Under the pieces are notes generated by a model. That model saw only the letters and a list, made by a program, of their open reading frames with translations, was not told where the DNA came from and did not search any database. Below, in pieces: positions 534-19,352 of a stretch of 64,000 nt of DNA (position 1 is the first letter of the stretch; each line of letters opens with the position of its first letter). A program made the position numbers and the translations under genes. This stretch comes from an uncultured Gemmatimonadales bacterium (GTDB lineage Bacteria; Gemmatimonadota; Gemmatimonadetes; Gemmatimonadales; GWC2-71-9), in assembly GCA_963825055.1 (NCBI GenBank), contig CAWGSK010000013.1, positions 160,001 through 224,000 on the forward strand, written 5' to 3'.

Positions 534-636
534 GCGGACAGGGCGGACAGGGCGGACAGGGCGGTCAGGGCGGTCAGGGCGGTCAGGGCGGTCAGGGCGG
601 TCAGGGCGGTCAGGGCGGTCAGGGCGGTCAGGGCGG
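533..636 (+). repeat. 9-bp tandem array GGCGG(A/T)CAG x11 plus a partial unit
   Basis: 3x GGCGGACAG (533-559), then 8x GGCGGTCAG (560-631), starting on the last base of the stop codon. Confidence 0.97.
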
Positions 637-3094: not shown

Positions 3095-3124
3095 TTGACC
3101 GGCAAGCCCCGGGGCGGGTACCTT
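3095..3124 (+). promoter_or_regulatory. putative sigma70 promoter for the TetR/aryl-CoA operon
   Basis: TTGACC (3095-3100) - 18 bp - TACCTT (3119-3124). Confidence 0.55.
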
Positions 3125-3129
3125 CCGTG

Positions 3130-3143
3130 CGAACGAACGTTCG
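3130..3143. promoter_or_regulatory. palindromic TetR operator, PaaR-type
   Basis: CGAACG-AA-CGTTCG is a perfect inverted repeat at the predicted TSS and fits CNAACGNNCGTTNG, the Thermus thermophilus PaaR consensus as I recall it. Confidence 0.72.
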
Positions 3144-3151
3144 GACGGACT

Positions 3152-3757
3152 ATGAAGCCCTATGATGAACGCCTCCAGCAGCTGCTCGATACCGCCGCCG
3201 TGACCTTCGCGGAGCGGGGCTTTCATGGTACCTCCATGCGGGACCTGTCCCGGGCGAGCAAACTCAGCCTGGCGGGGCTCTATCATTATGTGCACAGCAA
3301 GACGGAGCTGCTGTTCCTGATCCAGGACCGCTGCTTCGCCGAGGTCATCGCCGGGGCCCGGGAGGCCCTGGCCGGCGTGACGGATCCCGAGGAGCGGCTC
3401 CGGACATTCATCCGGCACCACGTGGGCTTCTTCGCGGCGCACATGGACGAGATGAAGGTGCTCGCGCACGAGGAAGACGAACTCTCGGGCACGATGCGGG
3501 AGACAGTGCGGCAGCGCAAGCGGGAATACGTCGCCCTGCTGTTTGACCTGCTGGACGCGGCGGGCGGCGGCGCGGGCCACCGGCAGGTGGCGGCCTACGC
3601 CCTCTTCGGCATGATGAACTGGATCTACACGTGGTACAATCCCGGCGGTGCCCTGCCCCCGGCGCGGCTCGCCTCGGACATGGCGGATCTCTTCCTGAAC
3701 GGTTACCTGACACCCACCCACGCGGCCACCCCCATGGCCGCATCGCACGGAGGTTGA
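3152..3757 (+). CDS. TetR family repressor (PaaR/KstR2-like)
   Basis: N-terminal HTH FAERGFHGTSMRDLS...LYHY; C-terminal FGMMNWIYTWYNPGG. Confidence 0.93.
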   Translation: MKPYDERLQQLLDTAAVTFAERGFHGTSMRDLSRASKLSLAGLYHYVHSKTELLFLIQDRCFAEVIAGAREALAGVTDPEERLRTFIRHHVGFFAAHMDEMKVLAHEEDELSGTMRETVRQRKREYVALLFDLLDAAGGGAGHRQVAAYALFGMMNWIYTWYNPGGALPPARLASDMADLFLNGYLTPTHAATPMAASHGG

Positions 3758-3762
3758 ACATC

Positions 3763-4593
3763 GTGGCTACAACGGTTACTCCCCGGCCCGGCGCGCCGGC
3801 CCCCACGGACCAGGTGCTGGTCGATTACGAAGTGAAGGACGGCCTCGCGATCATCTCGCTGAACGACCCGCCGGCCAATACCTACACCTACGAGATGATG
3901 CGGCAGCTCGACGCCGCCGTCCTGGACGCCCGGATGGCCGATGATGCGCACGTGATCATCATCCGCGGCGCGGGCGAGAAGTTCTTCTCCGCCGGGGCGA
4001 ACATCAGCATGCTGAACAGCGTGACCCCGCGCTTCAAGTACTACTTCTGCCTCCATGCCAACGAGACGCTGAACCGGCTCGAGCACACGCCGAAGCTCAC
4101 CATCGCGGCGCTTAACGGGCACTGCGTGGGCGGCGGCCTCGAGATCGCCATGGCGTGCGACATGCGCCTCGCCAAGCGGGACGGCGGCAAGATCGGCCTC
4201 CCCGAGGTGAACCTGGGCGTGCTGCCCGGCACCGGCGGCACCCAGCGGCTCTGCCGGCTGGTCGGCAACTCGAAGGCGATCGAGCTCATGACCACGGGTG
4301 AGACGTACTCCTTCGAGCGCGCCGAGGAGCTGGGCATCGTGAACAAGGTCTACGACAACGACAGCTTCTGGGAGAACGTCGTGATGTTCGCGAAGCAGTT
4401 CACCCCGCCGCACAAGGCGGCCAGGGCCGTTGGCGCCATCAAGCGCGCGGTGCAGTCGGGCAGCCAGGTGCCGTTCGAGAGCGGCCTGGCCATCGAGCGG
4501 GAACTGCAGCAGCAGCTCTTCCAGAGCGAGGACGCGAAGGAAGGGATCTCGGCGTACGTGGACAAGCGCATGGCCGAGTTCAAGAACCGCTGA
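3763..4593 (+). CDS. enoyl-CoA hydratase/isomerase, single-domain BoxC-like ring-cleavage hydrolase
   Basis: Crotonase motifs GGGLE and LPEVNLGVLPGTGG; GANISML...KYYFC..ANET.N.LE resembles the BoxC N-domain; GTG start with GGAGG RBS. Confidence 0.85.
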   Translation: MATTVTPRPGAPAPTDQVLVDYEVKDGLAIISLNDPPANTYTYEMMRQLDAAVLDARMADDAHVIIIRGAGEKFFSAGANISMLNSVTPRFKYYFCLHANETLNRLEHTPKLTIAALNGHCVGGGLEIAMACDMRLAKRDGGKIGLPEVNLGVLPGTGGTQRLCRLVGNSKAIELMTTGETYSFERAEELGIVNKVYDNDSFWENVVMFAKQFTPPHKAARAVGAIKRAVQSGSQVPFESGLAIERELQQQLFQSEDAKEGISAYVDKRMAEFKNR

Positions 4594-6027
4594 TGCACAC
4601 CGATCTCTTCATCGGCAACGAGTACGTGGCGGCGGCGGGTCACGGGCGGTTCGACGTGATCAACCCCGCCACGGAGGACGTGCTGGCGGACGTGGCGCTC
4701 GGCGACGTGGCGGACGTGGACAACGCGGTCCGCCGGGCCCGGGCCTGCTTCATCTCCGACGAGTGGCAGGGGATGAGCACCCCGGAAGCGCGGGATGATC
4801 CTGGCCCGCGCGGCCGACCTGCTCCGGGAGCGGCGGGATGACTTCGCCGCCCTGGAAACGCGGCAGAACGGGAAGCCGCTGTTCGAGGCGATGATCGACA
4901 CGAACATGGCGACCGAGGTGCTCCGCTACTATGCGGGCTGGGCCGACAAGATCACCGGTGACACGCTCCCGATGGACCGGGGCACCTTCGCGTACACGCT
5001 CCGCGAGCCGGTCGGTGTGGTAGGCGCCATCGTGCCGTGGAACTTCCCGCTGAATCTCGCCATGTGGAAAGTGGCCCCCGCCCTGGCGGCGGGCTGCACC
5101 GTGATCCTGAAGCCCGCGACCGAGACACCGCTGACCGCCCTGCTCCTGGGCGAGGTGATGCGGGACGCCGGGCTCCCGGCCGGCGCCTTCAACGTGGTGC
5201 CCGGACACGGGAAGACCGCGGGTATGGCGCTGGTCCGACACCCGGACGTGGACAAGATCGCCTTCACCGGCTCGACGCCGGTCGGGCAGATGATCATGAA
5301 GGAAGCGGCCGACACGGTGAAGCGGGTGACGCTGGAACTCGGCGGCAAGAGCCCGAACGTGGTCTTCGCCGACGCCGACCTCGGCGCCGCCGTCCGGGGC
5401 GCGCAGTCGGGAATCTTCTACGGCAAGGGCGAGGTCTGCGCCGCGGGCAGCCGGCTCCTGGTGGAGCGCTCGGTAAAGGACCAGTTCGTGGAACAGCTCG
5501 CCGCGCGCGCGGCGAAACTCACGCCGGGCGACCCGTTCGACAAGGGCACCCGCATGGGCGCTATCGTCTCGAAGAAGCAGCAGGAGACGGTCCTGGGCTA
5601 CATCGCGAAGGGGAAGCAGGAAGGCGCAGAGGTGGTGGCCGGCGGCAACGCCGTCCAGGTGAACGGCAAGGGCTACTACGTGGAGGCGACGGTCTTCGAC
5701 GGCGTCACGCCGGACATGACAATCGCGCAGGAGGAAATCTTCGGCCCGGTGCTCGCCGTCCTCCCCTTCGATGACATGGAGGAGGCGGTCCACCTCGCCA
5801 ACCACTCGATGTACGGGCTGGCCGCCGGCGTCTGGACCCGCGACGTGAGCAAGGCGCACCAGATGGCCCGCGCCATCAAGGCCGGCACCGTCTGGGTCAA
5901 CACGTACAACATGTACGACGCGGCCGCCCCGTTCGGCGGCTACAAGCAGTCCGGCTTCGGCCGGGACCTGGGCCGCGAGGCGCTGGACAACTACACCGAA
6001 ACCAAGACCGTGTGGGTGGGCCTCTGA
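4593..6027 (+). CDS. aldehyde dehydrogenase (candidate BoxD-like semialdehyde dehydrogenase), frameshifted near 4780
   Basis: N-terminus lies in ORF 4593-4841 and the rest ([13 protein letters not shown], catalytic C in GEVCAAG, EEIFGP) in 4795-6027. Removing one C from CCCC at 4780-4783 joins them as MSTRKRGMIL. Confidence 0.88.
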
Positions 6028-7238
6028 TGGGGGCCGGCGAGCCCGTCATCACGGCTGCCCTCCGGACGCCGGTCGCGCGGGCCGGGGGCGGCCTGGCCGA
6101 GGTGCGGCCGGACGACCTGGCGGCAACCGTCGTCAAGGCCGTGGTCCGCCGGGCGAACCTCAAGCCCGAAGACATTGACGACGTGATCCTGGGCTGCGCC
6201 AACGGGGCCGGCGAGGACAACCGGAACGTGGCCCGGATGGCCGTGCTGCTGGCGGGCCTGCCGATCGAGGTGCCCGGCATGACGGTGAACCGGCTCTGCG
6301 GCAGCGGGCTCCAGGCGGTGGCGAGTGCGGCCCAGGCGATCAGGGCCGGCGAAGGCACCGTCTTCGTCGGCGGCGGGGTCGAGAGCATGACCCGCGCCCC
6401 CTACGTGATGCTCAAGACTGACTCGGCGTGGGACCGGCGCCCGCCCGAGGTGGCGGACACCACGGTGGGCTGGCGCTTCGTGAATCCCCGCATGCGGGCG
6501 GACTGGACGATCTCGCTTGGCGCGACCGCCGAGAAGGTCGCCGGGCAGTATGGCATCACGCGCGAGGAGCAGGATGCCTTCGCGCTCGAGAGCCAGGCGC
6601 GGGCGCAGAATGCCCTGGACGCCTGCGTCTTCGGGGACGAGGTCGTCCCGGTGGAGCTGCCGATGAAGGGCGGCGAGATCCGCTGCTTCAGCACCGACGA
6701 GCACCCGCGGGCGGGGCTCACGCCCGAGAAGCTCGGGAAGCTCAAGCCGGCGTTCGTGAAGGACGGCACCGTCACGGCGGCCAATTCCTCCGGCATCAAC
6801 GACGGCGCCGCCGCGCTCTCGGTGCTTGACGCCGCCTCGGCAAAGTCCTGCGGCGTGGAACCGCTCGCGCGTATCATCACAACGGCGGTGGCGGGCGTGG
6901 ATCCGGCCTGCATGGGACTCGGCCCGATCCCGGCCACCAGGAAGGCGCTGGAGCGCGCCGGCCTCACGATCGACCAGATCGACCTGGTCGAGCTGAACGA
7001 GGCGTTTGCGGCCCAGTCCATTGCCTGCATCCGCGAGCTCGGGCTCGACCCGTCGAAGGTGAATGTGTACGGCGGCGCCATCGCCCTCGGTCATCCGCTC
7101 GGCGCCTCGGGCGCCCGCATCCTGACCACGCTGGTCCACGCGCTCCGCCGGCGGGGCGGGCGCTACGGCCTCGCCACGATGTGCATCGGGGTGGGCCAGG
7201 GGATCGCGATGGTCGTCGAAAACACCGCCGCCGGCTGA
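6027..7238 (+). CDS. acetyl-CoA C-acyltransferase (3-oxoadipyl-CoA thiolase PcaF/PaaJ-like)
   Basis: [51 protein letters not shown] coupling to ALDH. Confidence 0.93.
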
Positions 7239-7246
7239 GGCGCCGC

Positions 7247-8047
7247 ATGGGTGACTTCCAGTTTGTCGAGCTGATCGTCGAGCACGGGGTCGGGACCCTG
7301 GCACTCAACCGCCCTGAGCGCATGAACGCGTTCGATGACGTGATGCGCCAGGAAATGGTCGAGGCCGCGAGCCGGCTGGTGCGTGACGACGCGGTTCGCG
7401 CCATCGTGGTAACCGGACGCGGGAAAGCCTTCTGCGCCGGGGCCGACGTCAAGTACATGGCCACAGCGGTGAAGGAGCATGACTGGAACGGCGCGATGGG
7501 CCTCGTCAACTCGGGCGCCGAGCTGGTCACCCTGCTCCGGCGCGCGCCGAAGCCGGTCCTCGCGAGCCTGAATGGCGTCGCGGCGGGCGGCGGGGCCAAC
7601 CTCGCCCTCGCCTGCGACCTCCGGATTGCCTCGGACGAGGCGGGCATCGGCCAGGTGTTTCACCGGATCGGGCTGCACCCCGACATGGGCGGAACGTATT
7701 TCCTCCCGCGCCTGGTGGGCCCGAGCCGGGCGCTGGAGCTGATCTGGTCGGCGGAGGTGCTGCCCGCGGACCACTGCCTGCGGCTCGGCCTGGTGAACAG
7801 GGTGGTGCCGCACGATGACCTGGCGCGGGAAACCGCGGCCTGGGCCGCGCGGCTCGCCGCCCTGCCGCCCATCGCGGCGGGGCTCGCCAAGGCGGCGGTC
7901 TACGAGTCCGGCGGCGGCGAGGATGCCCTGGCAGAGGCACTGGCCCGTGAGTCGGCCAGCCAGCGGACCTGTTTCGAGAGCGAAGACGCAGTCGAGGGCC
8001 TTCAGGCCTTCTTCGAGAAGCGGACACCCCATTTTCACGGGCGGTAG
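7247..8047 (+). CDS. enoyl-CoA hydratase/isomerase (PaaG-like)
   Basis: LNRPERMNA, FCAGAD, GGGANLALACD, IGLHPDMGGTYFLPRLVG. Confidence 0.9.
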   Translation: MGDFQFVELIVEHGVGTLALNRPERMNAFDDVMRQEMVEAASRLVRDDAVRAIVVTGRGKAFCAGADVKYMATAVKEHDWNGAMGLVNSGAELVTLLRRAPKPVLASLNGVAAGGGANLALACDLRIASDEAGIGQVFHRIGLHPDMGGTYFLPRLVGPSRALELIWSAEVLPADHCLRLGLVNRVVPHDDLARETAAWAARLAALPPIAAGLAKAAVYESGGGEDALAEALARESASQRTCFESEDAVEGLQAFFEKRTPHFHGR

Positions 8048-8062
8048 AGAGGAGAATTCAGG

Positions 8063-9190
8063 ATGCGGAAGCTCGGCAATTTTGATGACTGGATTGATTA
8101 CTTCCGGTACTGGCAGGAGTCCATCGGCCTCCCGGTGAAGGAGTTTGAGTCCCGGCTGCCCCAGGGGTTCGCGTTTATCGACAAGTTCTCCGACCCCGAA
8201 GCGGAGGCCATCGAGTTCGGCCACTACAAGGGCAACCGGAAGTGGCCCACGATCATGCACATTCCCGACCAGCGGATCCGGGACGCGTGCCTGAACCTGA
8301 TCGTGTATCAGGGCGACACCGAGTTCGCCTCGGTGGAACAGCAGAAACGGCTGCTCACCAACCCGCCGAGCGACTATGACCTCTTCGCGCTCGTCCGCGT
8401 GATGAGCGAGGAGATGCGGCACGGGTGGCAGATGTCCTACCTGCTCTGCCGCCACTTCGGTGACGAGGGCCGCCGCGAGGCCGCCAAGCTGCTCGAGCGC
8501 CGCGCGGAGGAGGGCGACCGGCTCCTCGGCTCGTTCAACGAGATCGTGGAGAACTGGCTCGACTTCTACACCTACACCCAGTTCATCGACCGCGACGGCA
8601 AGTTCCAGCTGAAGATGCTCTCGACCTCCGCGTTCGAGCCGCTCGCCCTCAGCATGGGCCCGATGCTCAAGGAGGAGAGCTTTCACCTGGGCACCGGCAA
8701 CAACGGACTGCTCCGGATCGTGAAAGCCGGCCGGATCCCGCCGGAGATCATCCAGCGGTACTTCAACAAGTGGGTGCCGACGGCGTTCGACCTCTTCGGC
8801 ACGGACAACTCCTCCAGCGCCCACTGGGCCTACGTCTGGGGCCTCAAGGGCCGGTTCAACGAACGGGAGACCGAGGAGCCGGCGGACGTGGCGCACCTGA
8901 ACGAAGCGAGCCGCGAGCTGTATCACCAGGAGGTGGACCGCCTCGTGAAGCGGCTCAACATGCAGATCCCGGAGAAGGAACGGCACCTGTTCGTGCCCGA
9001 CCTCCGCTTCAACCGGAAGATCGGCACGTACGCACGCAAGTGCTACACGGTCCACGGCGAGGAAGTGAGCCCGGACCAGTACCCGGCCTACCTCAGCACT
9101 GTGACCCCGACGGACGAGGACCGCGAGTTCATCCGGAACGTCACCAAGGACGGAGACTGGATCGAAGCGCGGAAGATGGAATCTGCCTGA
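8063..9190 (+). CDS. ferritin-like di-iron aryl-CoA epoxidase, BoxB-like (short form)
   Basis: QGDTEFASVEQQ, EEMRH, FIDRDGKFQL and EESFH give the E/ExxH/D/ExxH ligand pattern of the BoxB/PaaA family. Confidence 0.85.
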   Translation: MRKLGNFDDWIDYFRYWQESIGLPVKEFESRLPQGFAFIDKFSDPEAEAIEFGHYKGNRKWPTIMHIPDQRIRDACLNLIVYQGDTEFASVEQQKRLLTNPPSDYDLFALVRVMSEEMRHGWQMSYLLCRHFGDEGRREAAKLLERRAEEGDRLLGSFNEIVENWLDFYTYTQFIDRDGKFQLKMLSTSAFEPLALSMGPMLKEESFHLGTGNNGLLRIVKAGRIPPEIIQRYFNKWVPTAFDLFGTDNSSSAHWAYVWGLKGRFNERETEEPADVAHLNEASRELYHQEVDRLVKRLNMQIPEKERHLFVPDLRFNRKIGTYARKCYTVHGEEVSPDQYPAYLSTVTPTDEDREFIRNVTKDGDWIEARKMESA

Positions 9191-9893
9191 AGTACGCACC
9201 GGCCCCTCGGTCATCGCGCACCGCGGGGCCTCCGCCCAGGAATACGAGAACTCGCGCGCGGCATTCCGGCGCGCGGTGGAGTTGGGCGCGGACGGGGTCG
9301 AACTCGACGTGCACACCACGGCCGACGGGGTGGTGGTCGTGCACCATGACCCGGACCTCCCGGGCCTGGGTCCGATCGCACGGCTGGCATTCCCTGCCCT
9401 GATGGAAGCACGCCTGCCCAACGGGGAGCCCGTGCCCACGCTGGCCGAGGCGCTGGAGATCCTCCAGGGGCTCGACGTGTACGTGGAAGTCAAGCGCCTC
9501 CTGCCCGAACGGGATGCGCTGCTGCTCGCGGTGCTGGACGCCGGCCCCGAGCCGGCACGCTACGCCGTTCACAGCTTCGACCACCACCTCATCCGGCGGC
9601 TGTCACGGCTTCGCCCCGGCCTGTCCCTCGGCATCCTCCTCTCGGCGAGAACCCTGTGGCCCGAGCGGATGATGGACGAGGCAGGCGCGTCCACCCTCTG
9701 GCAGCAGCAGGAGGGCATCGACGCCGGGCTGGTCGAGCGGGTACACGACGGCGGGGGGAAGGTGATCGCCTGGACGGTGAACACCGAGGCCGATGGCGCG
9801 CGCCTGGCGGCGCTTCGCGTCGACGGCCTCTGCGGCAACTACATTGACCGGCTCCGGGCCGTTGCCCCGGGGAGCCCAGGGGTACAGGCATGA
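9183..9893 (+). CDS. glycerophosphodiester phosphodiesterase family protein
   Basis: VIAHRGASAQEYENS lies in frame upstream of the tracked GTG 9276; GADGVELDVH and AWTVN follow. Probable CTG start at 9183. Confidence 0.85.
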   Translation: MPEVRTGPSVIAHRGASAQEYENSRAAFRRAVELGADGVELDVHTTADGVVVVHHDPDLPGLGPIARLAFPALMEARLPNGEPVPTLAEALEILQGLDVYVEVKRLLPERDALLLAVLDAGPEPARYAVHSFDHHLIRRLSRLRPGLSLGILLSARTLWPERMMDEAGASTLWQQQEGIDAGLVERVHDGGGKVIAWTVNTEADGARLAALRVDGLCGNYIDRLRAVAPGSPGVQA

Positions 9894-10753
9894 CGACTGA
9901 GACGAAGCGGGTGGCCGTGATCGGCGCCGGAACCATGGGGGCCGGGATCGCCCAGGCGGCCGCGACCGCAGGCTGGAAGACGGCGCTGGCCGACGTGGAC
10001 GAGGACACCCTGACCCAGGGCCTCGACCGGATCATCCTGACGCTCGACGGGGCCGTCGAGCGGGGGAAGATGACCCCTGACGAGCGCTCGGCGATCCGGA
10101 ACCGGATTCACGGCGATACGCTCGAGGCGGCCTGTCGCGATGCCGACCTGGTCATCGAGGCTGTCGTGGAGGACGCCGCGGTCAAGGCCGACGTGCTCAA
10201 GCGGGCGGCCGCGGTGGCGGCGGACAACGCACTCCTGGCCACCAACACCTCCTCGCTCTCGGTGGGCGATATCGCCGCCGGCCTCCCCCGCCCCGGCCGC
10301 TTTCTGGGGCTTCACTTCTTCAACCCGGTGCACCTGATGCGCCTGGTGGAGATCGTGGTGCATCCGGGCACGGATGCGGCGGCGCGGGCAGAGGCGCTGG
10401 ACATCGTGAAGGCGATGGGCAAGGAACCGATCGTGGTGAACGACACCCCCGGGTTCGCCTCCAGCCGCCTCGGTGTGGTCCTGGGCCTCGAGGCGATGCG
10501 CATGCTGGAACAGGGCGTCGCCTCCGCCGCGGACATCGACCGCGCCATGGCCCTGGGCTACAACCACCCGATGGGCCCGCTGCGCCTGACCGACCTCGTG
10601 GGACTCGACGTCCGTCTCAAGATCGCCGAGCACCTGCACGCGACCCTGGGCGGAGATCAGTTTGCCCCGCCCGACATTCTCCGCCGCCTGGTGGCCGAAG
10701 GGAAGCTCGGCCGCAAGACGGGACACGGCTTCTACGACTGGAAAGGCGCATGA
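9890..10753 (+). CDS. 3-hydroxyacyl-CoA dehydrogenase (PaaH/Hbd-like)
   Basis: GAGTMGAGIA, TNTSSL, GLHFFNPV, GYNHPMGPL, LGRKTGHGFYD. Confidence 0.93.
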   Translation: MTTETKRVAVIGAGTMGAGIAQAAATAGWKTALADVDEDTLTQGLDRIILTLDGAVERGKMTPDERSAIRNRIHGDTLEAACRDADLVIEAVVEDAAVKADVLKRAAAVAADNALLATNTSSLSVGDIAAGLPRPGRFLGLHFFNPVHLMRLVEIVVHPGTDAAARAEALDIVKAMGKEPIVVNDTPGFASSRLGVVLGLEAMRMLEQGVASAADIDRAMALGYNHPMGPLRLTDLVGLDVRLKIAEHLHATLGGDQFAPPDILRRLVAEGKLGRKTGHGFYDWKGA

Positions 10754-11532
10754 GCGAACCCGAACTGATCCTGACCGAGGTGCACGGCGCCGTCGCCGTG
10801 GTGACCATCAACCGTCCCGAGAAGCGGAACGCGCTGAGCAGCCCCCTCCGTGCGCAGCTCATGGGCGCCCTCAACGGCCTCCGCGGCAATGACGAGGTGC
10901 GGGTGGTGGTGATCACCGGCTCCGGCGACAAGGCCTTCGTGGCGGGCGCCGACATCGGCGAGTTCGAGGGGCGGACCCCGGTCGACCAGTTCCGCGTCAT
11001 GAAGGAGCCGACCATCTTCGAGGCGGTCGAGACGTTCCCGAAGCCCGTCATCGCGATGATCAACGGTTTTGCGCTGGGTGGAGGCTGCGAGCTCGCCATG
11101 GCGTGCGACATCCGCGTCGCGGCCGACAGCGCCCGCCTGGGCCAGCCCGAGGTGAACCTCGGCATCATCCCGGGGGGCGGCGGCACCCAGCGCCTCCCGC
11201 GCCTCGTCGGCCTCGGCCAGGCCTTCCGCCTCCTGTTCACCGGCGACCTGATCGACGCCACCGAGGCGGCCCGCATCGGGCTGGTGGACATGGTCGTACC
11301 CGCCGCCGAACTGCGGGAGCGCACCATGGAACTGGCGGCGAACATCGCCACCAAGAGCCCCGTCGCCCTGCAGCTGGTCAAGGAGGCCGTCCGCGCCTCC
11401 ACCCGGACATCGCTCGACGAGGGCCTGCGGCAGGAAACCACGCTCTTCGGCATCGCCTTCGCCAGCGAGGACAAGGCGGAGGGAGTGAAGGCCTTTCTCG
11501 AAAAGCGCAGGCCGGAGTTCAAGAACCGCTAG
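10750..11532 (+). CDS. enoyl-CoA hydratase (PaaF/Crt-like)
   Basis: AFVAGADI, GGGCELAMACD, QPEVNLGIIPGGGGTQRL. Confidence 0.93.
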   Translation: MSEPELILTEVHGAVAVVTINRPEKRNALSSPLRAQLMGALNGLRGNDEVRVVVITGSGDKAFVAGADIGEFEGRTPVDQFRVMKEPTIFEAVETFPKPVIAMINGFALGGGCELAMACDIRVAADSARLGQPEVNLGIIPGGGGTQRLPRLVGLGQAFRLLFTGDLIDATEAARIGLVDMVVPAAELRERTMELAANIATKSPVALQLVKEAVRASTRTSLDEGLRQETTLFGIAFASEDKAEGVKAFLEKRRPEFKNR

Positions 11533-11673
11533 GCGGTAAGCGGTGAGCGGTAAGCGGTAAGCGGGAACTGCCCCGCATTTCGAGATGGCTGCATGCCAGG
11601 CAGGTCCCGCTCACTGCTCACCGCTTACCGCTTACGCTGTTCCCATTATCGCTCACCACTTACGCTGTTCCCA
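11533..11673. repeat. heptamer GCGGT(A/G)A array plus inverted array (long hairpin), and a 15-bp direct duplication
   Basis: 4 units 11533-11560 + GCGGGAACTGCC pair with GGCAGGTCCCGC-TCACTGC-TCACCGC-TTACCGC; CTTACGCTGTTCCCA occurs at 11631 and 11659. Confidence 0.9.
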
Positions 11674-11681
11674 GGAGTACC

Positions 11682-12539
11682 ATGTCCGCTCCCATAACAG
11701 ACATCCACATTCACATCCAGCCCTGGCGGCAGCTCAAGCCTGCGGTCATGGACGTGATGCGGAAGGGCAAGGAGGACCACTGGGAGCGGCTGATCGAGCT
11801 CATGGAGGACCCCGCGGCCCTGCTCGAGGTGATGGATGCGGGCGGGATCGACCGGGTCGGGCTCATCAACTACCCGAGTCCGGACCTGATGGGCTTTGAC
11901 AACTCCACCAACCAGTTCGCGGCGAACTATGCGACACACGACCCGGAGCGGCTGCTGCCGTTCGGCGGCGTGCATCCACGCTACACGAAGGACCCCGAGG
12001 GCGATGTCGACCGGCTGATCGGCATGGGGATCCGCTGCCTCAAGATCCATCCTCCGCACCAGCTCTTCCCCGCCAACGCCTACACCGAGGGGCTCGAGGC
12101 CCTGGGGCGGATCTACCGGCGCTGCGAGGAACGCGGCCTTCCGGTGATGATTCACACCGGAACGAGCGTCTTCCCCGGCGCGCGCTCCAAGTGGGGGAAT
12201 CCGCTCGAGCTGGACGACGTGGCGATCGACTTTCCGGACCTGCGTATCCTGATGGCCCACGGCGGACGGCCATTCTGGATGGACCAGGCGTTCTTCGTCC
12301 TCAGGCGGCACCGGAACGTGTACCTCGAACTTTCCGGTATTCCGCCCGCCCGGCTCCTGGACTACTTTCCCCGACTCGCCGAGCTGGCCGGGAAGACCCT
12401 GTGGGGCACCGACTGGCCCAGCCCCGGTGTCCGGGACCTCCGGCAGAACCTGGACCAGTTCCTCGCCCTGCCACTCGACCCTGCCGTACAGCAACGCATC
12501 ATCTCCGGCAACGCCCTGGCGGTCTTCCCGCCGGCCTGA
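11682..12539 (+). CDS. amidohydrolase family 2 protein
   Basis: DIHIH, KIHPPHQ, IHTG, MAHGG, WGTDWP; AGGAG RBS. Confidence 0.88.
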   Translation: MSAPITDIHIHIQPWRQLKPAVMDVMRKGKEDHWERLIELMEDPAALLEVMDAGGIDRVGLINYPSPDLMGFDNSTNQFAANYATHDPERLLPFGGVHPRYTKDPEGDVDRLIGMGIRCLKIHPPHQLFPANAYTEGLEALGRIYRRCEERGLPVMIHTGTSVFPGARSKWGNPLELDDVAIDFPDLRILMAHGGRPFWMDQAFFVLRRHRNVYLELSGIPPARLLDYFPRLAELAGKTLWGTDWPSPGVRDLRQNLDQFLALPLDPAVQQRIISGNALAVFPPA

Positions 12540-12564: not shown

Positions 12565-13958
<1,394 letters not shown>

Positions 13959-13962
<4 letters not shown>

Positions 13963-15203
13963 AATACACCCTGCACTTCCTCCTGGCCGGTGTCCTGGCC
14001 GGCACGCCCGCCGCCGCCCAGACTGTCGCCATCACCGGCGGCACCGTCTATCCGGTGAGCGGCCCGAAGATGGACAACGCCACGGTGCTGATTCGTGACG
14101 GGAAGATCGTGGCCGTGGGTCCGGACGTGACCGTCCCCGCGGGCGCCACCCGGATCGACGCCACCGGCAAGTGGGTTACGCCGGGCTTCTTCCATGGGAA
14201 GACGACCGAGGGACTGTCGGTGGTGGGCTCGGTCGGCGAAACCAATGAGCAGTCCATGGAGGGCGACATCAACGCGTCGTTCAACGTGGCGGACGGGATC
14301 AATCCACGGGCGGTGACCATCCCCATCGACCGCCTCGAGGGCCTCACGACGGTGGTGAGCATGCCCTCGGGTCGCTTCATCCAGGGCCAGGCGGCCGTGA
14401 TCGACATGGACGGCGCGACGATCGGTGACCTCCTGGTGCGCTCCCCCGCCGGGATGGCGGTGGATCTCACGTCGGGCAGCAAGGGTGCGGTCGGTGGCAC
14501 CCGTGCCGGGCTGGTCGAACGGCTGCGGCAGCTGCTGGACGATGCGAAGGAGTACGCCCGGCGCCGTGACGATTACCGCCGGAACCAGATCCAGGAACTC
14601 TCCGCCACCGCCGCGGACCTCGAGGCCCTGCAGCCGGTGCTCGCCGGCCGGGAGCCCCTCCTCGTGACCGCGAACCGCGAGAGCGACATCCGCGCGGCCC
14701 TCGGCATCGCGAAGAGCTACAACCTCAAGATGGTGATCCTGGGAGGGCAGGAGGCGTGGACGGCGACCGATGCCCTGAAGACGGCCAACGTTCCCGTCGG
14801 CATCAACACGCTGATCAACACGCCTGACTTCGATGCGCTTGGCGCCCGGCTCGACAATGTCACGCTGGTGGCCGAAGCGGGCGCCCCGTATTTCATCATC
14901 GAGGGCGAAACCGGCGGGCCCCGGAACCTGCGCTACGCCGCGGGTGAGGCGGTGCGGAATGGACTCAGCTGGGAGCAGGCCCTCGCCGCCATCACCCTGA
15001 TGCCGGCCCGCGCATACGGCCTGGACGACCAGTACGGCTCCCTGGAACCGGGGAAGGTCGCCAATGTGGTCGTGTGGAGTGGGGACCCGCTCGACTTCCC
15101 GGCCGAGGCCGAGCACGTGCTGATCCGCGGGAAGGACATGCCGCACGAGAACCGGCAGACGGAACTGCGGGAACGGTACCGGGAGCTGCCGCCGAGCTAC
15201 TAG
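13959..15203 (+). CDS. secreted amidohydrolase-fold protein lacking the HxH metal motif
   Basis: Signal peptide; IDATGKWVTPGFFHG and GSLEPGKVANVVVW; ATGA overlap with the previous gene. Confidence 0.82.
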
Positions 15204-16750: not shown

Positions 16751-17206
16751 ATGATCAGTTTCCGTATCAATGGCAAGCGGGTGGAGGGCACCTCCTCCCC
16801 CGATACACCACTCCTCTGGGTCATCCGTGACGAGCTGGGCCTCCCCGGTACCAAATTCGGGTGCGGGATCGGCCAGTGCGGCGCCTGCACGGTCCATCTG
16901 GACGGGGAGGCGGTGCGCTCGTGCCAGACGCCCCTCTCGGCGGTGGCCGGGAAGTCCGTGACCACCATCGAGGGGCTCTCGCGCAACGGCGACCATCCGG
17001 TCCAGCGGGCGTGGGTGGCGGAGCAGGTCCCGCAGTGCGGCTACTGCCAGAGTGGGCAGATCATGTCCGCAGCGGCGCTGCTCCAGGGGAACCAGACGCC
17101 GACCGACGATGAGATCGACACCGCGATGGAGGGGAACATCTGCCGCTGCGGGACTTACCAGCGCATCCGGAAAGCCGTGCACCGCGCGGCGGGAGGTGGC
17201 CGATGA
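16751..17206 (+). CDS. (2Fe-2S)-binding subunit of an IorAB-type molybdoenzyme (isoquinoline 1-oxidoreductase alpha-like)
   Basis: [35 protein letters not shown]. Confidence 0.95.
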
Positions 17207-19352
17207 CCGCCAGCGGACTGAGCCGCCGGGACTTCGTCCGGGCCGGTGTGGCCACCGGGGCCGGGCTCACGATTGCCGTCCACCTCTCGGGCTGCGCGCC
17301 GCGCGGCAAGGAGAGCACCGCCGCGAAGCCCCGTTCCATCCCAACGCCTGGGTGCGGGTCGGCACGGACGGCATCGTCACACTCGTGGTGGACCGGTCGG
17401 AGATGGGACAGGGGGTAACCACGGCCCTGCCCCAGATCCTGGCCGAGGAGCTCGACGCGGACTGGAAGATGGTTCGGTTCGTCCAGGGACCCGCCGGCAA
17501 GGAGTACGTGAACCCTGCCTTCGGGATGCAGGGCACCGGTGGCAGCACCAGCGTGCGGGCCGCGCTGCAACCCCTGCGCGAGGCCGGCGCCCGGGCCCGC
17601 GCCATGCTGGTGGCCGCGGCCGCGCAGGAGTGGGGCATCGAGCCCTCGGCATGCCAGACCGCGAACGGCGAGGTGATCGAGGCAAACGGCCGGCGGCGGC
17701 GCTCCTACGGCGACCTGGCCCAGGCCGCGTCGGCGCTCCCGGTGCCGGAGGAAGTGACCCTCAAGGACCCGGCAGACTTCAAGCTGATCGGGAAGCCCGT
17801 TCCCCGGCTCGACATCGCCGACAAGGTGACGGGCCGGGCCGGGTTCGGAATTGACGCGACTGCCCCGGGCATGCTGGTGGCGGTGCTGGCACGCTGCCCG
17901 GCGTTCAGCGGCACGAACACGGGCTATGACGAGGCCGCGGCGAAGGCGGTGCCCGGTGTGAAGCACGTCGTGAAGCTCGATTCAGGGATTGCGGTGGTGG
18001 CGGACGGGTACTGGAATGCGAAAAAGGGGTGCGACGCCCTGAAGGCCACGTGGGACCGCGGCGCGATGGCGGGGGTCAGCAGCGAATCCCTCCGGCAGCA
18101 GTTCGTCTCCCTCGCCTCGAAGAAGGGCGTGGTGGCGCGCAACGACGGCGATGCCGACCGGGCACTCCGGCGCGCCGCGAAGCGGGTGGAGGCCGAGTAC
18201 GAAGTGCCGTACCTCGCGCATGCCACCATGGAGCCGATGAACTGTGCGGCCTGGGTCCAGGCCGACCGCTGCACGGTCTGGGCGCCCACCCAGTTCCAGT
18301 GGGGGCCGGGCAGCGGTGTGCAGGGCGTCGCCGCGCAGATCGCGGGCGTGCCCCAGGACGCGGTGGACGTCCAGACGACGTACCTGGGTGGCGGGTTCGG
18401 CCGCCGCTTCGAGCTGGACTTCGTGGTGGAAGCGGTGCAGCTCTCGAAGGCCGTCGGCGCGCCGGTCAAGGTGATCTGGCCGCGCGAGGACGACGTGGGA
18501 CATGATTTCTACCGTCCCGCCACGTACAACCGCCTCGCGGCAGGGCTGGACGCCGCGGGCACGCCGGTCGCCCTGACGCACCACATCGTGGGCCCGTCGA
18601 TCATGACCCGGTTCGAGGCGGCGTTCGGCCCGCTTCCGAACGGGCTGGACGCCAGCTCGGTCGAGGGCTCGGCCAACATGGGCTACGGCATCCCGAACCT
18701 GCGGGTGGACTGGGTCCGGGCCGACGTGGGCGTCCCCGTCGGCTTCTGGCGCTCCGTGGGCAATTCCCAGAACGGGTTCATCGTGGAGGGCTTCATCGAT
18801 GAGCTGGCCCACGCGGCCGGCCAGGACCCCTTCGAGTTCCGCCGGCGCCTCCTGGCCAACGCGCCGCGCCACCGCGGCGTGCTGGAACTGGCCGCGGAGA
18901 GGTCGGGGTGGGGCTCCGCCCTGCCCGCCGGCCACGCGCGGGGCATCGCCGTCGTGGAATCCTTCGGGAGCTACGTGGCGGAAGTGGCGGAGGTCTCGGT
19001 CGAGAACGGGAAAGTCCGGGTGCACAAGGTCACCTGCGCCATCGACTGCGGCGTGCACGTGAACCCTGACATCATCGCGGCCCAGATGGAGAGCGCCATT
19101 GTCTTCGGCCTCACCGCCGCACTCTATGGCGAGGTCACCATCGAGGACGGCGGGGCGAAGCAGAGCAACTTCCACGACTACCAGATGCTCAGGATCAACG
19201 AGATGCCGGTCGTCGAGGTGCATATCGTGCCGAGCACCGAGGGACCGGGCGGGGTCGGCGAGCCCGGCACCCCGCCGATCGCCCCGGCCGTGGTGAACGC
19301 GATCTACGCGGCGACGGGGACCCGGGTGCGGAAGCTGCCGATAAGGCTCTAG
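17203..19352 (+). CDS. molybdopterin-binding subunit (IorB-like) with Tat signal, frameshifted near 17320-17333
   Basis: LSRRDFV Tat leader in ORF 17203-17418; the body ([34 protein letters not shown]) is in the other frame. One extra base would join them. Confidence 0.88.

Follow-up and report, generated by a model that had tools for sequence, protein, structure and literature searches.

Two enzymes, BoxB and PaaA, are the only aryl-coenzyme A (aryl-CoA) ring epoxidases given as characterised in the consulted sections of PMC5489048, and those of PMC4498308 report strict substrate specificity for each of them, together with dependence on a reductase of its own. The latter source further describes, in the same sections, the Box reductase BoxA as a flavoprotein with two [4Fe-4S] clusters that acts transiently and in small amounts, and the N-terminal domain of BoxC as the only catalytic domain of that protein. 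Here we describe an operon built around a short BoxB-type oxygenase, which we call sBoxB. It lies in a 64-kb stretch of DNA (the window; G000:C13:160001-224000) of a metagenome-assembled genome (MAG; G000) of an uncultured Gemmatimonadales bacterium, 3.5 Mb in size, 87% complete and 6% contaminated. The nearest described system is the Box pathway of Azoarcus (Aromatoleum) evansii (BoxB, PDB 3PER/3PM5/3Q1G; BoxC, 2W3P), with which the operon shares the BoxB fold, the six iron ligands, five of seven pocket residues, a single-chain oxygenase, a BoxC-type catalytic crotonase domain, an aldehyde dehydrogenase (ALDH) and a beta-oxidation tail. Unlike Box, it has an oxygenase shorter by about 100 amino acids (aa) with the exchanges F206Y and T210I/V, a one-domain BoxC, no BoxA, a TetR regulator instead of BoxR and no linked ligase, and it carries in addition a GDPD-family phosphodiesterase and an amidohydrolase. 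With PaaABC(D)E (E. coli, PDB 3PW1; Thermus PaaR regulon) it has in common a related di-iron fold, PaaG-, PaaF-, PaaH- and PaaJ-like genes and a PaaR-type operator, and in a sister version the oxygenase is encoded by a paaA-D-B-C-like block. It differs from that system in that sBoxB falls outside the PaaA clade and needs no PaaB/C gene in the genome, that PaaE, PaaK and PaaZ are missing, and that the PaaA of the sister version (PaaA2) has second-shell residues of BoxB type, not PaaA type. HcrCAB of Thauera aromatica (PDB 1RM6) resembles a co-occurring gene trio, including the four-cysteine insertion of HcrB, that is found in relatives in trans or beside sBoxB; unlike the Thauera enzyme, most Gemmatimonadota copies fall short of the family threshold and the Gemmatimonadales ones carry Gln in place of Glu726, and the trio is neither part of the operon nor found in G000. 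The operon is Box-like in its predicted working, but in three features tested (BoxA, a BoxC of two domains, the family cut-off) it departs from Box, and it does not belong to the Paa systems either. It is real and conserved, and its predicted chemistry would make it an uncharacterised form of aryl-CoA ring cleavage through epoxides. A full-text search, which left most subscription papers outside, returned no report of a shortened BoxB, of a BoxC with one domain, or of a PaaA acting on benzoyl-CoA.

By fold and tree sBoxB is a BoxB-type oxygenase, and a role as epoxidase is predicted. Among solved structures its best relative is BoxB (3PER, E = 4e-49, versus 1e-4 for PaaA), and its predicted model (predicted local distance difference test, pLDDT, 94.9) matches BoxB with a template modelling score (TMq) of 0.89 versus about 0.5 for PaaA. 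In a quick tree, from which 6 fragmentary or very divergent rows were excluded, sBoxB and BoxB formed one clade (SH-aLRT 100) and sBoxB stood outside the PaaA clade, which bears out the BoxB assignment made in a preliminary description of this DNA; both motifs on which that assignment had been based, QGDTEFASVEQQ and DRDGKFQL, lie in the sBoxB gene. The protein scores under the cut-offs of both families, with 217 versus 499 bits on TIGR03225 (BoxB) and 34.5 versus 280 bits on TIGR02156 (PaaA). The BoxB iron ligands E120, E150, H153, D211, E240 and H243 correspond to E87, E117, H120, D176, E205 and H208 of sBoxB, and all six are kept in 119-120 of 120 close homologues. From the list of seven second-shell pocket residues of BoxB in the consulted part of PMC5489048, Q116, T119, S123, F193 and F203 are kept in 120/120. 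The PaaA-clade features, with the lysine bridge, are not found in sBoxB. Relative to BoxB, the missing length falls at both termini and after residues 221 and 270. Of 8000 proteins scored, 5817 fell in the family at E<=0.001, with other relatives counted in. Homologues of 206-657 aa were searched for fused or split forms; no extra Pfam domain was found in the longer homologues P0046, P0088, P0089 and L074, and the lone sBoxB-GDPD fusion (P0104) may be a read-through error.

The constant partner of sBoxB, the crotonase ECH1, has 40% identity over 150 aa to the BoxC N-terminal domain and reaches 84 bits on the BoxC profile TIGR03222 (cut-off 712). A BoxC-like K-x-x-F-C-x-x-x-N-E motif occurs in 52/52 ECH1 orthologues and is absent from the two other crotonases of the operon, ECH2 and ECH3. 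Overall, ECH1 is closer to ordinary one-domain hydratases (PDB 2PPY, which we take to be a Geobacillus protein, E = 3e-68) than to BoxC (E = 2e-23), and the link to BoxC therefore rests on motif and context. Benzoate degradation via benzoyl-CoA is said to occur in Bacillus stearothermophilus. We consider ECH1 to be a probable stand-alone version of the BoxC catalytic domain with a predicted hydrolase function, in line with the half-size BoxC noted in the preliminary description.

To describe the gene content we compared 80 sBoxB loci, with per-gene denominators given by the loci with enough flank. TetR was present in 55/56, ECH1 in 56/56, and ALDH, thiolase and the PaaG-like crotonase in 53/56 each; GDPD was found in 64/67, 3-hydroxyacyl-CoA dehydrogenase (HBD) in 63/67, the amidohydrolase in 62/67 and ECH3 in 34/67. 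None of the 80 loci carried BoxA, BoxC, a ligase, a ferredoxin or PaaA2/B/C/D. Since the content is conserved across sBoxB loci, the gene set of the operon is not due to chance. The minimal locus (L089) consists of tetR-ECH1-sBoxB. GDPD is kept in sBoxB- and PaaA2-type operons and absent from acidobacterial loci, and the amidohydrolase also occurs in the acidobacterial sBoxB-hcr loci L171, L175 and L177.

That the operon works without BoxA had been proposed from the window, and wider searches agree: no BoxA match was obtained in G000 (87% complete), and none over cut-off in 56 genomes, three of them with canonical boxCB. Likewise, neither paaE nor a benzoate-CoA ligase over cut-off, nor a paaBCDE set elsewhere, was detected in G000. 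Within the window, tblastn with BoxA, PaaE, PaaK, PaaB, PaaD and aryl-CoA ligases gave no match, and PaaC matched only sBoxB. PF05138 had a single match in G000, where no PaaA or PaaC was found, and likewise a single one in 53/53 sBoxB genomes. PaaK was not found in G000 and was over cut-off in 3/61 genomes, all canonical-paa; PaaZ was not found in G000 and was over cut-off in 0/5 genomes. The claim that the window lacks any reductase, PaaB/C subunit or ligase holds for these proteins, but an unrelated [2Fe-2S] and molybdopterin pair of isoquinoline/aldehyde oxidoreductase type is present at 16751-19352; it is 25-42% identical to Hcr subunits and is not conserved beside the operon.

The absence of a linked reductase is not peculiar to the sBoxB operon, because within the same phylum a reductase is also missing next to canonical boxCB and next to some canonical paa clusters. 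The consulted part of PMC10803450 mentions box clusters without boxA and reads them as incomplete. Candidate donors in G000 are two 2[4Fe-4S] ferredoxins, KorAB and a GltD-like oxidoreductase; given the properties of BoxA described above, the change to a free ferredoxin would be a modest step. A donor of FNR/PaaE type was rejected, as PF00175 was absent from G000 and found in only 1/5 genomes. G000 also carries a formate dehydrogenase. At G000:C13:302700-311100 (L142) a block of GltD-like, korA and korB genes is repeated in tandem; the N-termini of the two copies are nearly identical and the first korB is truncated, which may reflect a mis-assembly.

A phylum-wide search of 301 genomes yielded two groups, one with strong sBoxB matches and one with weak Paa-like matches. 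In 124 Gemmatimonadota genomes, picked from this search so that each class was covered and surveyed with PF05138, 53 had sBoxB only, 43 PaaA2/C2, 18 canonical PaaA/C and 10 none, and no genome held two of sBoxB, PaaA2 and canonical PaaA. All 15 PaaA2 loci of family f1 proved to be the same operon with paaA2-D-B-C beside ECH1 and without sBoxB, some of them lacking thiolase or ECH3 or being cut by the contig end; where present, ECH1 is 70-75% and ALDH 69-75% identical to the window. A close ECH1 orthologue was found in 33/33 PaaA2 and 5/5 sBoxB genomes, compared to 0/18 canonical-PaaA and 0/10 epoxidase-free genomes. In a tree of ECH1 and ALDH (52 loci) the two operon types are interleaved, with 4 changes of which at least 2 are forced by strong branches, and the ECH1 alignment contained no columns separating the types. 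The oxygenase was thus exchanged more than once with the next enzyme unchanged, which argues that sBoxB and PaaA2 give the same product and suggests that they are two enzymes doing one job. The view of the operon as a streamlined Box/Paa hybrid thus stands for the BoxB-type oxygenase, the BoxC-like partner and the missing BoxA, but had overlooked that the oxygenase slot is interchangeable.

PaaA2 has 27-31% identity to canonical PaaA and reaches 126 bits on TIGR02156 (cut-off 280). The Gemmatimonadota proteins have the BoxB-type Q-x-D-T-E-x-x-S and D-R residues and no PaaA lysine; in Thermus and haloarchaeal PaaA2, Ser replaces the Gln. On the Thermus plasmid L120, PaaA2 and an ECH1 relative are accompanied by a gene of the benzoate-CoA-ligase family (591 bits, cut-off 375). 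The haloarchaeal plasmids L121 and L122 carry PaaA2, ECH1 relatives, a near-cut-off ligase, CoA-transferases, two UbiD proteins and a ferredoxin, and L121 also a formate dehydrogenase. UbiD together with a CoA-transferase can make benzoyl-CoA from phthalates. The Agrobacterium plasmid L124 (8947-11266) carries another divergent A-D-B-C di-iron block, accompanied by genes for a CoA transferase, a thioesterase and an AMP-binding protein; the block's second-shell residues are unlike those of both BoxB and PaaA.

With slightly better than even confidence, we read the operon as serving BoxA-free aerobic epoxidation and ring opening of benzoyl-CoA, with electrons probably drawn from free ferredoxin. 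Benzoyl-CoA is favoured because of the clade, the pocket, the partner, the hcr/bcr context, the pattern of the paa-linked dehydrogenase and the Thermus and haloarchaeal neighbours. From the observed gene content, fold, clade, residues, operator, exchange and co-occurrence we infer the following reactions, substrate and donor. The ring of benzoyl-CoA would be epoxidised by sBoxB, and ECH1 would open it to 3,4-dehydroadipyl-CoA semialdehyde and formate, as modelled on BoxB/BoxC. ALDH, the PaaG-like isomerase, hydratase, dehydrogenase and thiolase would then finish the route to succinyl-CoA and acetyl-CoA, under control of the TetR repressor via the operator at 3130-3143. The most likely electron source is a free 2[4Fe-4S] ferredoxin acting in trans, which would itself receive electrons from a 2-oxoacid:ferredoxin oxidoreductase or a GltD-like NADPH oxidoreductase. 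Where sister species have the PaaA2 block in this slot, the block would perform the same reaction.

The genomic context was read in 12 fetched loci plus L070, L073 and L089, several of the 12 being more distant relatives or not sBoxB. Six of these, all acidobacterial, have hcrCAB adjoining sBoxB, and HcrA exceeded the TIGR03194 cut-off in both loci that were scanned. An HcrA-like gene was present in 24/28 sBoxB, 18/19 PaaA2, 2/17 canonical-PaaA and 1/10 epoxidase-free genomes, a close BcrB-like gene in 13/28 sBoxB, 9/19 PaaA2 and 0/27 other genomes, and a paa-linked 2-oxoacid dehydrogenase in 17/17 canonical-paa, 1/28 sBoxB and 0/19 PaaA2 genomes; as the E1 gene moves together with the paa cluster and the genomes are kin, these substrate-context counts are indicative only. 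The HcrCAB-like trio has 1RM6 as its best solved match (E = 8e-179 and 2e-58), and the HcrB four-cysteine insertion is kept in 17/17 aligned proteins. Stand-alone examples of the trio are L204:8758-11247 and L217:7679-10552. In G000, a PaaX-headed cluster at C11:135000-143200 (L146, L149) holds oah-, dch-, bcrC/B/A/D- and had-like genes, all under cut-offs; it is a predicted divergent class I benzoyl-CoA reductase pathway, common in family f1. Beside canonical paa, a dedicated fused E1 + E2 2-oxoacid dehydrogenase (L153:9970-11151, L155:9986-13464, L156) is a candidate phenylpyruvate dehydrogenase, with which PaaK would no longer be needed. POR_N, as a marker of the phenylglyoxylate route, varied from 1 to 5 copies across five genomes. 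A CoA-transferase as general entry was rejected, since the acidobacterial type does not track the operon (9/28 sBoxB, 0/19 PaaA2, 10/27 others); the family III type was absent from G000, G187 and G138. In L190:7317-11430 of G049, an sBoxB genome, a PaaK-like ligase adjoins an indolepyruvate:ferredoxin oxidoreductase, in surroundings unlike the rest of the genome that may be foreign or mis-binned. The lower-pathway genes fit the benzoyl-CoA and phenylacetyl-CoA routes alike and are not decisive.

Several observations weigh against benzoyl-CoA as the substrate. No source of it was found in G000 (87% complete) among ligases over cut-off, Hcr and the two CoA-transferase types tried. The benzoate-CoA-ligase family, present in 22/36 sBoxB genomes, has no member over cut-off in the other 14/36, and the common 480-bit ligase is located in anthranilate clusters. 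In the HcrA-like protein, Gln occupies the position of Glu726, the catalytic Glu, in 14/18 stand-alone loci (L204-L221), including 10/10 from Gemmatimonadales, and this Gln form may not make benzoyl-CoA; the sBoxB-linked acidobacterial copies keep Glu (5 read). Within the BoxB pocket, F206 is replaced by Tyr (sBoxB Y171) in 120/120 close homologues and T210 by Ile or Val (position 175) in 120/120, Val being the residue of PaaA. The operator palindrome at 3130-3143 is an exact fit to the Thermus PaaR consensus CNAACGNNCGTTNG given in the consulted part of PMC6651687. One genome, G303, carries sBoxB together with canonical boxCB. sBoxB and canonical PaaA occur together in 0/53, an exclusivity that would be expected if they shared a substrate. 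Moreover, both the oxygenase tree and the ECH1+ALDH tree are quick searches, and the genome counts overstate independence, the genomes being kin. An HcrCAB-like copy stands directly upstream of boxC-boxB in G303, which there has no boxA.

The main alternative is that sBoxB is a single-chain phenylacetyl-CoA 1,2-epoxidase that displaced PaaABC(D)E, with ECH2 as the epoxide isomerase, ECH1 and ALDH in place of PaaZ, and phenylacetyl-CoA arising from phenylpyruvate via a general branched-chain 2-oxoacid dehydrogenase. This was our first reading, based on the exchange alone, and it was demoted to a rival on later context and residue evidence; taken as a whole we regard it as possible yet doubtful. 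It draws on the mutual exclusion of the three oxygenase types in the 124 genomes, while some genomes (G144, G186) do hold both canonical BoxB and canonical PaaA, on the PaaR-like operator, the PaaA-like exchange of T210, and the fact that no benzoyl-CoA route was found in G000. Phenylalanine hydroxylase was not found in 5/5 genomes, and no aryl-CoA ligase would be required; the canonical-paa genomes G010, G016 and G063 also lack PaaK. Against it stand the clade, fold and Q/T/S/R residues of BoxB in sBoxB, and the BoxC-like ECH1 as constant partner, whereas ECH2 is missing from L013, L074 and L089. The paa-linked 2-oxoacid dehydrogenase does not track sBoxB, but the Hcr-like and Bcr-like genes do. 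The operator, GAAC-N4-GTTC, is present ahead of tetR in 58/58 loci, and a similar one also precedes tetR-boxC-boxB of canonical type (L103, L104) as well as stand-alone paaA2 blocks. Finally, BoxB is reported as inactive on phenylacetyl-CoA in the consulted sections of PMC4498308.

A substituted benzoyl-CoA (hydroxy-, amino- or methyl-) or another ring position, with the amidohydrolase handling the substituent, is in our view unlikely. The invariant Y171 and the fixed I/V175 in 120/120 homologues would suit such a pocket, two phyla retain the amidohydrolase, many of the sBoxB genomes have anthranilate-CoA ligase clusters, and both the Glu-to-Gln change of the Gemmatimonadales Hcr-like protein and the genome with both BoxB types (G303) could be explained in this way. 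However, the anthranilate clusters already hold an AbmA-type enzyme for anthraniloyl-CoA, ECH1 has no type-specific columns, and the Glu kept by sBoxB-linked acidobacterial hcr points to plain benzoyl-CoA there. That sBoxB is no epoxidase at all (e.g. a ring hydroxylase or desaturase) in an operon for a non-aromatic acyl-CoA is highly improbable: its score under the BoxB cut-off, the generic beta-oxidation families of most other genes, and a GDPD and an amidohydrolase without a place in known Box or Paa routes are outweighed by the BoxB fold and pocket, the BoxC-like partner, the exchange with a Paa-type oxygenase and the aromatic-pathway neighbours in several phyla.

Extended to soil bacteria, thermophiles and haloarchaea, the benzoyl-CoA reading leads to a broader proposal, which we put forward tentatively and with less than even confidence. 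The operons might represent a third widespread aerobic aryl-CoA ring-cleavage system, with a half-size BoxC, a plug-in epoxidase slot filled by either a minimal BoxB or a PaaABCD-shaped complex that attacks benzoyl-CoA instead of phenylacetyl-CoA, and no dedicated reductase, in which the Hcr-like Gln enzyme may act as an electron relay or as an epoxide-deoxygenating safety valve. In that case the present paaA label would be wrong for thousands of genes. A large reductase-less family trading places with a Paa-shaped complex in an unchanged operon offers a natural enzyme pair, and with it a handle on substrate choice and on why PaaA, unlike BoxB, needs partner subunits; it also bears on the annotation of aromatic breakdown in abundant soil phyla (Gemmatimonadota, Acidobacteriota). 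Since the PaaA2 form occurs in the cultured strain Thermus thermophilus HB5018 and in haloarchaea such as Haloterrigena turkmenica, the question is directly testable. What this analysis adds is the in-place exchange, the recognition of a BoxB-type site in PaaA2, the profiles of ECH1 and Hcr, and the operator.

All ten genes listed in the preliminary description are present and co-oriented (Table 1).

Table 1. Coordinates of operon features in the window, with strand and basis of assignment
Feature	Position	Strand	Basis or remark
Possible promoter, weak (TTGACC, 18 nt, TACCTT)	3095..3124	+	by eye; similar in many relatives
Predicted TetR operator, palindrome CGAAC-N4-GTTCG	3130..3143	.	conserved ahead of tetR
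TetR-family repressor, likely acyl-CoA sensing	3152..3757	+	TetR_N + TetR_C_24
ECH1, single-domain crotonase, predicted ring-opening hydrolase	3763..4593	+	resembles BoxC catalytic N-domain
ALDH, frameshift near 4779	4593..6027	+	single 477-aa open reading frame in relatives
Thiolase, 3-oxoadipyl-CoA-like, PcaF/PaaJ type	6027..7238	+	NF006551 540 bits, cut-off 605
ECH2, PaaG-like crotonase	7247..8047	+	TIGR02280 203 bits, cut-off 345
sBoxB, 375-aa BoxB-clade di-iron protein, predicted aryl-CoA epoxidase	8063..9190	+	fold, tree, residues
GDPD-family phosphodiesterase, probable CTG start	9183..9893	+	family match
HBD, single-domain PaaH-like	9890..10753	+	family match
ECH3, PaaF-like enoyl-CoA hydratase, optional	10750..11532	+	34/67 loci
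Amidohydro_2 protein; lactonase function a guess	11682..12539	+	family match

The ALDH gene is interrupted by a one-base insertion at window position 4779. Contigs of runs X1 and X2 are near-identical to the window, with 0-2 differing letters elsewhere, but lack that base, so the frameshift is an assembly error and the gene is intact in the organism; further broken genes in the source MAG may be assembly errors too. No ATG, GTG or TTG start is present ahead of the HRG motif of GDPD, and translation probably begins at the CTG at 9183, which overlaps the stop codon of sBoxB; several relatives show the same arrangement. By alignment the hydratase glutamates are absent from ECH2, which is thus of isomerase type. 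A consensus scan found 0 promoters in the window, the tabulated candidate lying under its threshold, and the promoter/terminator scan was uninformative. Regarding a wider regulon, one further strict operator site was found in G000 (C15:56861), with no plausible pathway gene behind it, and the operator scan gave no consistent site at hcr and bcr loci. Downstream of the operon and probably outside it, two amidohydrolases with signal-peptide-like N-termini are located at window positions 12565-15203; roughly half of the loci have them, often at a distance of several kb. A short tandem repeat lies between two genes at window positions 570-630 and reads Gly-Gly-Gln in one frame.

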